This document shows, piece after piece, positions 2,560 through 58,758 of a DNA stretch of 64,000 nucleotides (its first letter is position 1; each line of letters begins with the position of its first letter). The notes beneath the pieces are model-generated. The model did not search any database, was not told where the DNA came from, and saw only the letters and a program-made list of their open reading frames with translations. The DNA is from an uncultured Acidobacteriota bacterium (GTDB lineage Bacteria > Acidobacteriota > Thermoanaerobaculia > UBA5066 > DATFVB01), in assembly GCA_963794295.1 (NCBI GenBank), contig CAWCDE010000006.1, forward strand, positions 18,738 through 82,737, written 5' to 3'. A program made the translations under genes and the position numbers.

Positions 2560-7989
<5,430 letters not shown>

Positions 7990-7991
7990 AG

Positions 7992-16891: not shown

Positions 16892-16978
16892 TGGTGCCGG
16901 AGGTCGGAATCGAACCGACATGGGGTTGCCCCCGGGGGATTTTGAGTCCCCTGCGTCTACCAGTTTCACCACTCCGGC
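16892..16978 (-). tRNA. tRNA-Leu (anticodon CAA) with long variable arm and encoded CCA
   Basis: Reverse complement folds as GCCGGAG/CTCCGGC acceptor stem, anticodon stem-loop GGGGA-CTCAAAA-TCCCC (anticodon CAA), a long extra arm, a GGTTCGATTCC T-arm and 3' CCA. Confidence 0.85.
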
Positions 16979-18924: not shown

Positions 18925-18970
18925 GCGGGCGGGGGCGATGCCCCGAGCCGGACGGCGCGTCCGGGATAGC

Positions 18971-19136
18971 GGAAATTCCAAATCTCCCAAGCCTCAAATT
19001 CCAACAAACTCGAATCGCTAAATCGCAATGCCCGAAAGCGGGCCTTCGGATTACCGAGCCGACGCGTACTCGTGTATTGTTTGAGGATTGCGATTTGGAA
19101 GTTATTGATATTTGGAGCTTGAGGTTTGGAAATTCG
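18971..19136. repeat. low-GC palindromic MITE-like intergenic element, copy E1
   Basis: About 165 bp at roughly 45% GC in a 70% GC genome. Terminal inverted repeats: GGAAATTCCAAATCTCCCAAGCCTCAAATTCCAACAAACTCGAATCGC versus the reverse complement of GCGATTTGGAAGTTATTGATATTTGGAGCTTGAGGTTTGGAAATTCGG. Internal GCCCGAAAGCGGGC hairpin. Related copies at 38388-38548, 40166-40450 and 44411-44603. Confidence 0.7.
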
Positions 19137-19216
19137 GCCGGTGCGCCTCACCCGCGCCTGAAGTCTTCCCGGACTATCCGACGGGTGCCGAGCCGTCCCT
19201 CTGCTATCGTTTCTTC

Positions 19217-37574: not shown

Positions 37575-38423
37575 GTGACCGGGAAGCGCTCCGTGCGGCT
37601 CCGGCTCGGGCTCGCCGACGCCGAGCGCGCCTCCGCGGCGCTCTACCGCGCGGGCACCCTCGGCGGCTGGGAGAGCGGAACGGAGTTCCTCGCCGCCTTT
37701 CCCGACGCGTCCTCGGCGCGGACCGCGCTCGAGCTTCCTCGCCGGCGAGTCGATCGCTGCCCGCCTCGAGGAATACCGGGTCCCCGCGGATCCTTTCGCC
37801 GTCCATCGCGCGTCGCTCGCGCCGTTCGCCGCCGGTGGCTTCCGGATCGACCCGCGAGGCGAGCCCGACGGAGGCTCGGAGGGGCCGGAGACACTCTGGA
37901 TCCCGGCGCACGCCGCCTTCGGGACGGGCCTCCACGCCTCGACCCGCGGAATCCTCCGCTGGATCGGCCGGGCGGACCTCCGCGGCGCCGCGTCCTCGAC
38001 GCCGGATGCGGAAGCGGGATCCTCGCGATCGCCGCGTCCCGCCGCGGGGCGGAGGCGTTCGCCTTCGATCTCGACGCCGATGCCGTGTTCGAAGCGCGCC
38101 GGAACGTCGCCCGGAACGCCGCCTCCCGCGTTCTCCTCTTCGCGGGCGGGATCGCGGCGGCCGGCGGCATCTTCGAAGCGATCTTCGCGAACATGATCTG
38201 GGAAGAGTCGGGTTCCGCTCGTCCCCGCGCTGGCGCGGCTCCTCGCGCCGGACGGCCGGGTCGTTTTCGCCGGCATCCTCGACGAGCGCGAGGCCGAAGC
38301 ACTTCGGGGGATCGCGTCGGCGGGGCTCACCGCCGTTCGCGTCGATGGGGAAGACGAATGGCGGACGATCGTGGCGGTGAAGGGAGAACGAAATTCCAAG
38401 ACTCAAGCACCAATCATCAATAA
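37575..38423 (+). CDS. prmA: ribosomal protein L11 methyltransferase PrmA, frameshifted; exact 3' end uncertain
   Basis: SAM-binding motif [20 protein letters not shown]...AFDLDADAV in ORF 37575..38423. The C-terminal ...[21 protein letters not shown]...VKGER segment lies in the third frame. Canonical dnaJ-prmA adjacency. Confidence 0.7.
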
Positions 38424-38548
38424 ATTCCAAATCCGAATTCTGAAACAATACACGATGACGGTCGGTTCGTCCCCAGGGATTCGTTTCGGCATTGGAATTT
38501 GGTCATTCGAATTTATTGGAATTTGAGGCTTGAGATCTCGAATTTGCG
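38388..38548. repeat. low-GC palindromic MITE-like element, copy E2
   Basis: The reverse complement of its right arm (CTCAAGCCTCAAATTCCAATAAATTCGAAT) matches E1's left arm (CCCAAGCCTCAAATTCCAACAAACTCGAAT) at 26 of 30 positions. It lies between the convergent prmA and thiD 3' ends. Confidence 0.65.
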
Positions 38549-38579
38549 GTGCTCGTTGCGAGCCAATCCGGCTCCGATA

Positions 38580-39377
38580 CATGGCGCACTCGCTAGAAAT
38601 ACCGGGGGTTCCCTTTCCCTTCCCCGGATACAGCCCTCTCCCGAGCGCCCTCCGCAGGTATTCGATCCCGTCCCGGACGGCGTCCGGCATCGGCGCGCCG
38701 CGCGCGAGATTGGCGGCGATCGCGGAGGAGAGCGTGCACCCCGTGCCGTGCGTCGCCTCGGTGTCGATCCGGAAATACGCGAGAACTCGATGAATTTCCG
38801 GCCGTCGAAGAAGAGATCGCGGATCTCGCGGCCCTCGCCGTGTCCACCCTTGATGAGCACCGCCCGGGCGCCGAGGTCCGCCAGGACGCCGGCGGCGAGC
38901 CGGAGGTCTCCCTCGTCGCGGATCGCGAAGCCCGCGATCGCCTCCGCTTCCGGGAGGTTCGGCGTCACGAGCGCGGCGATCGGAAAGAGCTCGCGCTTCA
39001 TCGCGGCGAGCGCGGCGGGAGAGGAGCCGGGCGCCCGAGGTCGCATGGACGATCGGATCGAGAACGACGTTTTTCGCCTTGCCCTTCCGCAGGGCCCGCG
39101 CCGCCGCGGAGACGTTCGGGGCGTTGCCGAGCATCCCGATCTTCACGGCCCCCGGGACGGCGTCCGAGAGGATCGCGGCGATCTGTTCGGCGAGCAGCGG
39201 GCTGGCGACCGCCCGGGTCCGGGTGATTCCGCGGGTGTTCTGGACCGTGATCGCGGCCACCGCGACGGTGCCGAACACTCCGTGCGCCGCGAAGGTCATG
39301 AGGTCGGCGACGACGCCCGCGCCGCCGCCCGGATCGACGCCCGCGATCGTGAGCGCCACCGGGAGAGGGGTCGCCAT
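38580..39377 (-). CDS. thiD: hydroxymethylpyrimidine/phosphomethylpyrimidine kinase ThiD, frameshifted; 3' end approximate
   Basis: N-terminus [48 protein letters not shown] in ORF 38403..39377. Middle ([12 protein letters not shown]...AVLIKGGH) in ORF 38513..39046. C-terminal [22 protein letters not shown] back in the first frame. Confidence 0.75.
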
Positions 39378-39475
39378 TCCGAGAGTGTACCCCCCGCGCG
39401 CCCGGAAGGCCGGCGCGGTTGACCGCGGCTTCCCGTTCCGGTACCGTTCGCCCTTCCGGCGGAAGAAGGGGAGAA

Positions 39476-40165
39476 ATGGCGAAGAAGCTGCGGCGAGAGG
39501 ACTTGAAGCGGGACGAAGTCATGGAGACCGTCGGAAAGGGCCTCCAGTTCGTTTCGGTCCACCGGCGGGCAGCGTCGAGACGGTGGGGATCGCCATCGGG
39601 CTCGCCGCCCTGATCGGCGCCTTCGTCGCGTTCCGCGCGCGCCGGGAGTCGCAGGCCGCCGACCACCTTTCCCGCGCGCTCGCCGCTCTTTCGGCTCCCC
39701 TCGCGGGCGACCCGTCGGCGGGAACCGCCGCGAACGTACCCGGCCGCCGCGGAACGGAGCGCCGACACGAATCGCGAGCTCGCCGCCGCGGCCGAGTTCG
39801 GCACGACGAAGTCCGGCCGCGAGGCGGCGGTGATTCTCGCCGCCCAGGGGGATCGAAGGACACGGGCGCGTTCAACCGGTTCGCGCGGAGCGGCAAGACG
39901 GCGATCACCGCGGCCGCGGAGCTCGACGCGTACCGGACGATGAGCGATTCCGGGAAGACGACGGAGGCGATCGCCGCGGTCAGCGGCGATCGAGACCTCC
40001 TCGACCGCCGTCCCGAAGGATGCCCTGCTCGCCGAGCTCGGCGCGCTGTACGAGCGGTCGGGCTCGCCGCGCCGACGCGAAAGCGACCTACCAGCGCCTC
40101 GTGAGCGAGTATCCCGATTCGCCGTACGCCTCCGATGCGCAGAGCCGGATCGGGCAACTGCAGTA
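39476..40165 (+). CDS. YfgM-like membrane-anchored TPR protein, frameshifted
   Basis: [26 protein letters not shown], then a TM helix ([18 protein letters not shown]) in another frame and a C-terminal TPR-like ...[25 protein letters not shown] stop (TAA near 40163). Confidence 0.5.
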
Positions 40166-40450
40166 AAGAAGAAATCCGAAATCCGAATTTCGGTATCGCG
40201 GACAAGACGGCCGCTGAACGGAACGGCGCTCTTGCCTCGCCGGCGGGACCGAAGGACGCCGATAGCAATCGCCGAGCCCGCGAAGCGGGTGAAGGCCAAT
40301 CCGAAACAAATCCGAAATCCGAAAGGCTCGAATTCCGGAGAACGGGATCAAGGCGCCCCGAACGGCAGTTTTCCAGGGTGCCCGTTCGGGATTTCGGTTT
40401 GAGGTTTTCGGAGTTGTTTCGGATTACGGGTTTTGAAATTCGGATTCCCG
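40166..40450. repeat. low-GC palindromic element, copy E3 (largest), rich in GAAATCCGAAATCCGAA and complementary TTCGGATTTCGG motifs
   Basis: About 285 bp between yfgM-like and deoB. The left arm carries tandem AAATCCGAA units and the right arm the inverse TTTCGGATT(A/T)CGG units. Related to E1, E2 and E4. Confidence 0.6.
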
Positions 40451-40473
40451 GAGGCGCGCCGTCATGACTTCCA

Positions 40474-41646
40474 GTGACGTCGTTGTCTGACCACGCGCGC
40501 CGCCGGGCCATCGTTCTCGTCTGCGACGGTCTCGGCGTCGGCGCGGCGCCCGACGCGGCGGAGTACGGCGACGGAGGGAGCGACACGCTCGGGCACGTGC
40601 TCGACGCGTCCCCCGTGGATCTTCCGAACCTCGCGGCGCTGGGCCTCCTCCGCGCGGGACGCCGCGGCGGGCCGGCGCCGGACGCCGCGTGGGGCCGGAT
40701 GCGCGAGATCTCGGCGGGAAAGGACTCCACGACGGGCCACTGGGAGATGATGGGGCTCGTCACCCGGGAACCCTTCCCGCGTATTCCCGCGGATTCCCGC
40801 GGGAGGTCCTCGATCCGATCGAGCGCGAGATCGGCGTCCGCTTTCTCGGCAACGTCCCCGCTTCCGGAACGGAGATCATCCGGGAGCTCGGCCCCGAGCA
40901 CCTCGCGACGAAGCGGCCGATCCTCTACACGTCCGGCGATTCGGTGTTCCAGGTCGCCGCGCACGAGGATCTGATTCCGCCCGCCCGGCTCTGGGAGATG
41001 TGTGCGGTGGCACGGCGCCATCTCGTCCCACCGAACGGCGTCGGCCGCGTGATCGCCCGGCCCTTCGCCGGCGAGCCGGGCGCGTTCGTGCGCACCGCGC
41101 GGCGCCGCGACTTCTCGCTCCCGCCGCACGGCCCGACGTTCCTCGACTACGCGTCGGCCGCGGGGCTCCGCACGTTCGGCATCGGAAAGATCGTCGACAT
41201 CTTCGCGGGGCGCGGGCTGTCGGAGTTCGCCTACTCGGCGTCGGACGCGGACGGACTCGCGAAGACCGCCGACCGGGTCCGCGCGGCGCGGACGACTTCG
41301 TCCTGACGAATCTCGTCGACTTCGACAGCAAGTACGGACACCGAAGCGACCCGGCGGGGTTCGCCGGGAATCTCCGCCGCCTCGACGCCGCGATTCCCGC
41401 GCTCCGGGACGCGCTCGGCGCCGGCGATCTCCTCTTCCTGACCGGCGATCACGGCTGCGACCCGACGGACGCGTCGACCGACCATACGCGGGAGGAAGTG
41501 CCGCTGCTCGCCGCGGGGCCGGCCGTTTGTCCCGGAGCGGAGCTGGGGACGCGCCGCTTTCGAGACCTCGCGGCGACGCTGGAGGATTGGTTCGCCCTTC
41601 CTTCCCGCTCGGGAGGAACGAGCGCGCTCGGCGCGCTCCTCCGATG
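40474..41646 (+). CDS. deoB: phosphopentomutase DeoB, with about 3 frameshifts
   Basis: Pieces in ORFs 40474..40974 (AIVLVCDGLGVG...GKDSTTGHWEMMGL), 40689..41306 (PILYTSGDSVFQVAAHE...) and 41000..41647 (FVLTNLVDFDSKYGHR...LFLTGDHGCDPT). Confidence 0.85.
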
Positions 41647-42780
41647 ACGACGCTCGCCGCGATCGCCGCGGCGGTATCGGTGCTCTCGCTCGTTTTCCTG
41701 GCGATCAACGCGGTCGTCTTCCGCCCTCTCGGCGGGGTCTCCGGTCGAGCGGCCTGGCCGCGCGTCTCCGTCGTGATTCCCGCGAGGAACGAGGAGCGGG
41801 ACCTCGCGGCCGCGCTCCGCTCGCACGCCGCGAGCGACTATCCCGACTTCGAGGTGATCGTCGTCGACGACCGCTCGACCGACGGAACGCCGGCGATCGC
41901 AGCGCGCTTCGCCGCCGCGGACGGGCGATTTCGCGTGATCGCCGGCGAGGAGCCGCCTCCCGGCTGGCTCGGCAAGCCCCATGCCCTCCAGGCGGGCGCG
42001 GCCGCCGCGACGGGAGAGTGGCTCCTGTTCGCCGACGCCGACGTCGTCTACGACCCCGACGTCCTCCGCCGGGCGGTCGGGGAGGCGCTCCGGCGCCGCG
42101 CCGATCTGCTCGCCCTGCTGTCGCGTTTCGAAAGCCGCGGCTTCTGGGAAGGCGTCGTCATGCCGGGCGTCTACGGATTCCTCTATCTCGGACCGGGATT
42201 CCTCACGCAGATCGACGCCGTGACGGCGTTCGCCGGCGGGACCGGCAGCGGGAACCTTGTTCGGCGCGCGAGCTACGACGCGGCCGGGGGCCATGCCGCA
42301 ATCCGCGACGCGGTGATCGACGATATCGGCCTCGCGCTCTCGATGAAGCGCGCCGGTTTCCGCACCCGGGCCGCGGCCGCCTACGACGGCGTTCGCGTCC
42401 GGATGTACCGCGGGCTCGGCGAAATGGTCGATGGGTTCTCCAAGAACGTCGCCTTCCTCGGTTCTCCGGCGCCGTCGCTCCTTCTGCCGCTCGCGCTCTG
42501 CCTGCTCGCGTGGGCTCCGTGGGTCGTGCTGGCGGCGCCGGCGGCGGCGTCGACGAAGCTCCTCGCCGCGGGAGCGGCGGCGGCGACCATCGCCGGCCGC
42601 GCGGCCGTCGCACGCATCACCGGCGATCCCCTCTGGAGCGCGCTCTTCCATCCGCTGATGCTCACGGTCCTCTTCGTGATCACCCTGCGGTCGTGGTGGC
42701 GGAGGGTGGTCCGGCGCGAGATCGTCTGGCGCGGCCGCCGGACGGCGATCCCGCGCGCGCGGAGGCCCCCGGCGGGATAA
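41643..42780 (+). CDS. family-2 glycosyltransferase, polytopic membrane protein
   Basis: ATG overlaps the deoB stop (ATGA). GT-A motifs: VSVVIPARNEE, ...VVDDRSTDGT, ...FADADV. Multiple C-terminal TM helices. Confidence 0.8.
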
Positions 42781-44311: not shown

Positions 44312-44410
44312 AGGTCGAAGCTCGAAACGAGCGCGCGCCGGGAGGCGCGGCCGCGAAGCGGCCGGCGCAAGGCGACGAGCGCGGCGTTCGCCGCGCGCGC
44401 CAGTGCGCGA

Positions 44411-44603
44411 GCAAATCCGAAGCAAATTCCAATCTCGAATGACGAAATGTTCGAAACGGAGAGGTGCGTTTTGATCGGTGACGATGCCGCCGTCTGAGCG
44501 CCGGGATTTACTCGGCCGTCGAAACGAGGCCCGTTTGGATCATTCGAGTTCTGGATTTTGAATTTGTTTCGAATTTCGTGTTTCGAATCTCGGATTCATT
44601 TCC
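44411..44603. repeat. low-GC palindromic element, copy E4
   Basis: CAAATCCGAAGCAAATTCCAATCTCGAATGACGAAATGTTCGAAAC ... GTTTCGAATTTCGTGTTTCGAATCTCGGATTCATTTCC. Inverted symmetry. Lies between the convergent SBP and galK 3' ends. Confidence 0.6.
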
Positions 44604-58683: not shown

Positions 58684-58758
58684 TGGGGAGTCGCCTAACG
58701 GTAGGGCAGCGGCCTTTGGAGCCGCCTATTGAAGGTTCGAATCCTTCCTCCCCAACCA
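58684..58758 (+). tRNA. tRNA-Gln (anticodon UUG)
   Basis: TGGGGAGTCGCCTAACGGTAGGGCAGCGGCCTTTGGAGCCGCCTATTGAAGGTTCGAATCCTTCCTCCCCAACCA. Acceptor TGGGGAG/CTCCCCA, anticodon stem GCGGC/GCCGC with loop CTTTGGA, T-arm GAAGG-TTCGAAT-CCTTC. Very close to E. coli tRNA-Gln. Confidence 0.85.

Follow-up and report, generated by a model that had tools for sequence, protein, structure and literature searches.

What is the palindromic sequence that separates a TPR/YfiO-like gene from deoB in this contig, and does it belong to deoB or to something wider? The initial annotation of the window (the whole stretch of 64,000 nt analysed here, with a GC content of 70%) described an element, E3, at 40166-40450, in which AATCCGAA units on the left are mirrored by complementary units on the right. 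This description is borne out, the left part carrying the units on the + strand and the right part on the − strand. The 64-kb window contains 11 copies of AATCCGAA, whereas dinucleotide shuffles predict 1.77 and none of 100 shuffles reached 11. Seven of the 11 copies fall within 40173-40446, inside E3: five in the left part (+ strand; 40173, 40180, 40298, 40309 and 40316) and two in the right part (− strand; 40418 and 40439). CGAA recurs every 7 nt in E3, as it does in the profile of the family arms described below, giving a stem of tandem heptads.

Anatomy and setting of E3

The arm profile places the ends of E3 at 40172 and 40447, slightly inside the limits first given. The element begins 5 nt past the TAA of the TPR/YfiO-like gene, and the GGAGG of deoB begins 3 nt past its end, so its original placement directly upstream of deoB (TAA at 40164-40166, GGAGG at 40450-40454, GTG at 40474) holds. 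The parts of E3 and its flanking signals are as follows.

40164-40166, + strand: stop codon TAA of the upstream TPR/YfiO-like gene (PF13525/PF13512/PF13174 on 40020-40166)
40172-40193, + strand: outer part of the 5′ arm, heptads AAATCCG AAATCCG AATTTCG followed by G (profile positions ~1-22)
40194-40297, + strand: lineage-specific insert of 104 nt, GC-rich (69%), which splits the 5′ arm (alignment with relatives)
40298-40345, + strand: inner part of the 5′ arm, AATCCG AAACAAATCCG AAATCCG AAAGGCT CGAATTC CGGAGAACGG (arm profile)
40346-40387, + strand: loop, whose core GGGATCAAGGCGnCCnGAACGGC is common to L083
40388-40447, − strand: 3′ arm, a full-length mirror of the arm consensus (nhmmer)
40450-40476, + strand: downstream translation signals, with GGAGG at 40450-40454, ATG at 40464 and the deoB GTG at 40474 (sequence)

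In the nhmmer search, 40298-40333 (+) matches profile positions 23-58 (E = 9e-6) and 40446-40388 (−) matches positions 2-60 (E = 2.5e-5). The inner end of the 5′ arm is a degraded counterpart of the AATGACCGAAAC motif, and the loop contains a small hairpin formed by CCCGAACGG and CCGTTCGGG (40357-40365 and 40382-40390). Two inverted pairs join the halves of the element, 40298-40320 with 40403-40425 (23 nt, 91%) and 40180-40191 with 40435-40446 (12 nt, 100%). The long imperfect hairpin proposed at the outset is recovered by RNA folding of 40160-40460 (−126 kcal/mol, z = −2.75, equalled by none of 100 shuffles). The 104-nt insert forms small hairpins by itself, CCCGCGAAGCGGG among them, with a minimum free energy of −42 kcal/mol; when it is removed, the + strand of E3 forms a single hairpin (−80 kcal/mol, z = −7.4) and the − strand folds at −67 kcal/mol.

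The GGAGG at 40450-40454 is strong and lies 9 nt before ATG 40464, which opens an out-of-frame uORF of eight codons that ends at TGA 40488-40490 and overlaps the deoB GTG at 40474. The same arrangement is found in L084 (about 7955-7990), where the uORF starts with CTG, and it could reflect translational coupling or an assembly indel. Several genes in this part of the window are split over reading frames, namely deoB (40474-40974, 40689-41306 and 41000-41647), thiD (38403-39377 and 38513-39046, − strand) and the TPR gene (39419-39613 ... 40020-40166). Their orthologues are intact in L081-L084, and the split genes point to an indel-rich assembly or to pseudogenes.

E3 had been recorded as the largest element copy, and it is the largest of four related elements in the window; the sole source of its extra length is the unique sequence inserted into its 5′ arm. 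The other three, whose limits are approximate, are AT-rich, hairpin-like islands that use the same vocabulary as E3.

18960-19140: E1, a diverged, CpG-poor copy (fold z = −3.9)
38377-38554: E2, a diverged, CpG-poor copy between the convergent genes prmA and thiD (shared vocabulary)
44392-44597: E4, a sister copy between an SBP_bac_5 gene and galK (nhmmer 44596-44536, E = 1e-5)

A AATGnCnGAAAC-like relic of a start-codon region is kept in all four elements, in degraded form in E3. E1 retains aATGCCCGAAAGC at about 19028, E2 retains ATGACGG at about 38455, and E4 retains ATGACGAAATGTTCGAAACGG at the inner end of its 5′ arm (about 44439). E1 and E2 form a diverged, CpG-poor branch and resemble the arms of L224, one of the gene-carrying loci discussed below. 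The orthologue of E4, at L083 6002-6237, comes immediately after GT2, as no SBP_bac_5 gene intervenes there; the copy in the window overlaps, at its outer end, the stop codon (TGA) of galK. E2 is confined to the window, since the prmA/thiD junctions of L081, L083 and L084 lack it. These junctions carry unrelated GC-rich spacers of 208 nt in L083 and 330 nt in L084. In the window, E2 (38371-38554) replaces the prmA stop codon, and the prmA frame runs ~43 codons into the element.

A family of heptad-armed palindromes and its cargo gene

The 18 nt common to the three E3 orthologues (window, L083 and L084), AYCCGAAACAAATYCGAA, served as a search pattern and matched at least 120 metagenomic contigs with GC contents of 40-68%. 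An arm profile for nhmmer was built from an anchored alignment of 120 metagenomic arms, and its consensus reads AAATYCG AAATYCG AAnnnCG AAATYCG AAAC AAATYCG AAnnnCn AAA..., with a sharp outer end. Each element of the family has two inverted arms of ~60 nt made of degenerate heptads (AAATYCG three to four times, AAAC, one further AAATYCG and a series of looser AAAnnnn units). Inverted partners accompany nearly all of the anchored arms; the elements have a median length of ~150 nt, and their loops range from 5 to ~700 nt. The profile matches the inner 5′ arm and the whole 3′ arm of E3, the 3′ arm of E4, and both arms in L083 and L084, and it gave no match in ~1 Mb of taxon-labelled loci from other phyla. 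Both neighbouring genes lie within tens of nucleotides of the elements and are co-directional in 29 cases, convergent in 14 and divergent in 5, as assigned with a crude ORF heuristic that placed eight elements "inside" spurious long ORFs of high-GC contigs. A BLAST search of plasmids with a canonical element returned no match, and viral contigs gave only 7. The translated repeats matched no Pfam family and gave 2 weak protein-database matches, and full-text searches of the literature for this sequence and for acidobacterial MITEs found nothing relevant.

Other features of these loci were observed in passing. In 31 metagenomic elements, the 5 nt preceding the 5′ end are rich in G (16 of 31 have G at −2, and likewise at −5) and the sequence following the 3′ end is rich in C, which amounts to a weak inverted signal resembling GGAGG/CCTCC. 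Locus L142 carries three solo arms on the same strand (771, 4528 and 9597), none with a partner. Each has a GC hairpin, CCTGGCGCGGCAGAGCCGCAGCCAGG, in front of it and a conserved A-rich tail with the ending ...GGATAGTAGTACAGAAA behind it, and the whole resembles a separate composite repeat in which the arm has been reused. Some loops (L096, L192, L104 and L109) hold other short palindromic repeats (gtcattctgagcgaagcgaag... and cggattcctg...caggaatgaca), and different kinds of repeat are therefore nested in these genomes. In the NCBI MAG GCA_964619225.1, a microcompartment operon has an element (L209, 8200-8376) between its PTAC and BMC-H genes; the annotation of this element as a 58-aa protein shows how the repeat can be miscalled as an ORF.

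Elements with long loops (L144, L163, L117, L208, L143 and L167) encode a homologous protein of ~120 aa. The ORFs of L143 and L167 are cut off by contig ends, and L179 is an internally deleted intermediate. The protein belongs to PF05635, "23S rRNA-intervening sequence protein" (E = 1e-11), and to TIGR02436, "four helix bundle protein" (E = 5e-19), and the closest structure solved so far is 2RLD, an uncharacterised protein whose entry contains five chains. Its gene, of ~121 codons, is alone between the arms, with its ATG embedded in the inner motif AATGACnGAAAC of the 5′ arm and its stop codon abutting the 3′ arm. A ATGACCAAAAC / ATGACCGAAAC relic is kept in most ORF-less copies and in E1, E2 and E4, and is degraded in E3. 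Short copies such as E3 look like internal-deletion derivatives of complete elements. In L136, L138 and L168, the arms are chance pairings with an ordinary gene between them.

A database search with the L208 protein returned at least 7995 clusters (90% identity) at E ≤ 1e-10, and among the matches listed the closest named relatives come from Planctomycetota MAGs. Four contexts were chosen by similarity of the cargo protein alone: L210/L211 (Planctomycetales), L212-L216 (Planctomycetaceae), L233/L234 and L224. Family arms flank the gene in all four, with E-values down to 4e-13; L224 is diverged, and its 3′ arm alone was detected, weakly. In each context the cargo gene lies in an operon and is co-directional with both neighbours, and identical cargo proteins each recur in one genomic context only. 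At L224 3367-3527, the gene for the IVS protein (that is, the protein of rRNA intervening sequences) is followed by a second partial 5′ arm with a ATGACAGAAAC relic and then by the 3′ arm, a tandem or nested arrangement that the gene caller annotated as a 54-aa ORF.

No gene for an IVS protein was found by six-frame hmmsearch in the window, or in its syntenic relatives, and the E3 loop (40346-40387) holds no ORF; E3 is therefore classed as an ORF-less derivative rather than a complete element. Since the cargo gene of long-loop elements and the same arms occur together at the four protein-chosen loci, E3 is best read as an ORF-less derivative of an IVS-like palindrome. Its membership of the family and its derivation by loss of the ORF are both very probable.

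History and possible action of E3 at the TPR-deoB junction

The GT2 protein encoded next to E3 is 100% identical to one from a 105.8-kb NCBI/ENA contig, and the closest named relatives of this protein belong to Thermoanaerobaculia (Acidobacteriota). Syntenic contigs of related Thermoanaerobaculia retain the gene order dnaJ-prmA / thiD / TPR-deoB-GT2 ... galK, and their TPR-to-deoB junctions contain the following.

L083 and L084: an element of 190-210 nt
L082: a 110-nt miniature
L081: an 82-nt remnant in which the CGA-every-7-nt pattern persists
L086 and L087: a 27-nt spacer without the element

A scan of genome contigs with a deoB fragment gave best matches of only ~60% identity, none of them with the element. 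With the insert removed, E3 is 69-76% identical among the window, L083 and L084, and the orthologues stay AT-rich in genomes of about 70% GC. At the fourfold-degenerate sites of GT2, galK, deoB and TPR, identity is 44-60%, where base composition alone would give 41-44%. Measured against such near-saturated sites, E3 is conserved well above neutral, which implies either selection or conversion from other copies. The variable third heptad (TTT) is common to all three orthologues; together with the loop core shared by the window and L083, it argues for a single old insertion. One element would have entered the TPR-to-deoB spacer in the ancestor of a Thermoanaerobaculia subclade.

In a five-way alignment, the block 40194-40297 (104 nt) is present in the window only and missing from L081, L082, L083 and L084. 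As read from this alignment, the insert split the 5′ arm later, in the lineage of the window. The initial annotation had offered a nested insertion within a MITE-like family as one explanation of the tandem units. Family membership is upheld by the profile matches and a nested insertion of 104 nt by the syntenic alignment, but the inserted block is not itself a family copy, its sequence being unique. The insert was also considered as a second repeat family and as a GCGAAGC mini-hairpin; no other copy of it exists in the window or in any locus examined, and the CGCGAAGCG motif occurs 8 times against 9 expected, without enrichment. In L104, L193 and L194, the 5′ arm has a shared GC-rich insert of 22 nt (gggcgaagcgtccgtttcggacc) after heptad 3 and before heptad 4, which is also where the 104-nt insert of the window lies. 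This position could be an insertion hot spot or the site of an optional side hairpin.

The pairing of the arms was examined across the family. At variable profile columns, the arms of one element are no more complementary to each other than to the arms of different elements, wobble mismatches show no bias towards the sense strand (50 vs 42, p = 0.47), and transversions (381) outnumber transitions (326) among arm mismatches. Of the 65 pairs predicted for the three E3 orthologues, only 5 change in a compensatory way and ~20 are lost in one or more of the sequences; the covariation term (+2.68) is unfavourable. The arm duplexes of ORF-carrying copies are much weaker (−36 kcal/mol), with an internal loop in most heptads. 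Given that the covariation and strand-bias tests are negative, the pairing follows as a by-product from the presence of one conserved sequence in two inverted copies, and the covariation, wobble and consensus-fold results lend no support to a structure maintained by compensatory evolution.

Because E3 fills the entire spacer between co-directional genes, it would be transcribed together with TPR and deoB. In the TPR-deoB transcript the arms are likely to pair into a long imperfect double-stranded RNA stem which, by analogy with rRNA IVSs, would probably be cut by RNase III. Such cleavage would separate the TPR and deoB cistrons, or alter the stability or translation of the deoB mRNA. The reading as a whole, in which E3 is an eroded, ORF-less, IVS-like element whose stem would act in the TPR-deoB transcript, is favoured with moderate confidence. 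An RNA-processing role of any kind at the level of the host, which is proposed from the same analogy, is tentative, and the balance leans somewhat against it. The split arm tolerated in the window and the loss of most of the element in L081 and L082 indicate that any role of E3 is dispensable.

These same observations would suit a purely selfish or relic sequence without effect on the host, kept because its deletion is neutral or difficult and similar among relatives through gene conversion. In L081 and L082 the element has eroded and in L086/L087 it is absent, one arm tolerates 104 nt of inserted sequence, covariation and strand bias are both absent, and erosion of the ORF is also known for the Coxiella IVS (PMC4990558). 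This explanation is nevertheless rather unlikely. It sits poorly with orthologues that are 69-76% identical and AT-rich in ~70% GC genomes whose fourfold sites are near saturation, and conversion would not explain a loop core that is kept in the window and L083 and not in the metagenomic copies examined. A classical transposase-driven MITE, that is, an IS deletion derivative mobilised in trans through its terminal inverted repeats, is improbable. The elements are small, AT-rich, multi-copy (four in the 64-kb window) and intergenic, with inverted termini and sharp ends, and their presence varies among syntenic relatives, E2 being restricted to the window. However, target-site duplications are absent, direct repeats of 2-5 nt around 31 elements with both termini occurring at about the shuffled-partner rate. 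No transposase lies between any arm pair in the loci examined, where the PF05635 gene is the only recurrent cargo, and identical cargo proteins, which would point to recent transposition if they stood in different contexts, recur in a single context each, a result that is neutral or unfavourable to this explanation.

Two further explanations would tie E3 to deoB itself. The tandem units had initially been suggested as iterated binding sites, which here would mean an array of operator half-sites (TCCGAA/TTCGGA) for a transcription factor controlling deoB. The units are indeed repeated, partly palindromic (TCCGAATTTCGGA) and directly upstream of deoB, and a short related sequence persists at the junction even in L081 and L082. 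The suggestion is very improbable all the same, since the same heptad arrays stand at E4 (galK), at E2 (prmA/thiD), beside unrelated genes on at least 120 metagenomic contigs and around the PF05635 gene; the 27-nt spacer of L086/L087 has no such sites, and a scan in and near E3 for sigma-70-like promoters found nothing above chance. A dedicated cis-regulatory RNA in the deoB leader (riboswitch, attenuator or terminator) is scarcely credible. Its attraction is a stable predicted fold that ends 3 nt before the GGAGG, yet Rfam returned only a chance miRNA match for E3 at E ≤ 10, no + strand terminator with a U-tract occurs in E3, terminator-like matches are at chance level (three − strand sites against 3.8 by shuffling), and the element is not specific to deoB. 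The missing covariation and gene specificity largely refute it. At the gathering threshold, Rfam searches of the window and 12 loci, including canonical copies, found only tRNAs and no match for the family. The two tRNA genes at 16895-16978 (−) and 58684-58755 (+) are the sole Rfam matches in the window.

Taken as an eroded, ORF-less, IVS-like element, E3 alone is an ordinary eroded repeat copy, and what is new lies in the family and in its link to the IVS protein. Where IVSs come from, and whether they are mobile, has been an open question since the early 1990s, and the joint occurrence of arms, cargo gene and ORF-less derivatives makes the hypothesis that IVSs are mobile elements testable outside rRNA. 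A broader proposal, speculative and distinctly unlikely, is that the heptad-armed elements form a transposase-less mobile or selfish class in which a pentameric Avd-like protein would recognise the arms, as RNA or as hairpin DNA, and promote spread into co-directional operon spacers, with gene-less copies as MITE-like passengers and rRNA IVSs as a special case. The excised stem-loop might be an intermediate in their propagation. If true, this proposal would give a function to the abundant TIGR02436 family and explain the origin of IVSs. The family itself is a large group of heptad palindromes, for which no prior description was found, in spacers of Acidobacteriota, Planctomycetota and other environmental bacteria, and its cargo belongs to a protein family with at least ~8000 clusters (90% identity) near one query and no known function. 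For annotation, the family accounts for the AT-rich hairpins and false small ORFs of high-GC MAGs, and it cautions against reading such repeat-derived spacers as gene-specific regulators.

Comparison with known systems

Correia/NEMIS elements of Neisseria, ERIC/IRU elements of enterobacteria, RUP and BOX are MITE-like long palindromic repeats, and Correia elements are RNase III substrates. Repeats of the Correia/ERIC type are imperfect palindromes of 100-200 nt that are AT-rich relative to the genome, intergenic, multi-copy and co-transcribed. The heptad-armed family resembles the Correia, ERIC, RUP and BOX repeats in being composed of AT-rich, intergenic, multi-copy imperfect palindromes of 100-200 nt. 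It differs from them in lacking any sequence similarity and any TA or other target-site duplication, in having arms made of heptads, and in having a full-length element that carries a gene for a four-helix-bundle protein rather than for a transposase.

One report describes REP units as palindromes of 20-40 nt, most of which carry GTAG or CGTC as a conserved tag at the end (PMC3733652). REP/REPIN sequences, which are mobilised by RAYT (Y1 HUH) transposases, share with the family a hairpin organisation as inverted doublets, the lack of target-site duplications, an intergenic location and long vertical persistence at orthologous sites. In contrast, the arms of the family are ~60 nt of heptads with an AAATYCG terminus, and no RAYT-like gene was seen between or beside the arms in the loci inspected. 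The cargo protein itself connects the family to diversity-generating retroelements (DGRs), whose accessory protein Avd is a member of the same PF05635/cd16375 four-helix-bundle family (PMC10053308). Unlike in DGRs, no reverse transcriptase and no template or variable repeats occur beside the arms at the gene-carrying loci inspected.

The remaining comparison is with the 23S rRNA IVSs that carry an S23p/PF05635 ORF in Coxiella burnetii, Leptospira, Xanthomonas and Brucella. The IVS of Coxiella is a selfish element of 428 nt with a stem of inverted repeats, and the start of its S23p ORF is immediately preceded by two or three tandem GACAGAT heptamers (Warrier et al., 2016; PMC4990558). Its ORF is eroding, with a 176-bp deletion in one strain, and RNase III has been demonstrated to excise the IVS by cutting within the stem (PMC4990558). 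Older ideas quoted in the same paper regard IVSs as remnants of transposition, or as mobile elements whose ORF aids mobility (PMC4990558). E3 and its relatives differ from these IVSs in lying between protein-coding genes rather than in rRNA helices; the window contains no rRNA according to Rfam, and E3 is placed between the TPR gene and deoB, not in a 23S rRNA helix. The family is also dispersed, with many copies per genome that, like E3, mostly lack the ORF, its heptamer is CGAAATC-like rather than GACAGAT, and the RNase III excision demonstrated for the IVS would extend to E3 by analogy. Complete members of the family nonetheless share with the IVSs a stem, heptamers near the start of the ORF, and a loop that holds a gene of ~120 codons for a four-helix-bundle protein, sense to the host transcript and with an ORF that tends to erode.
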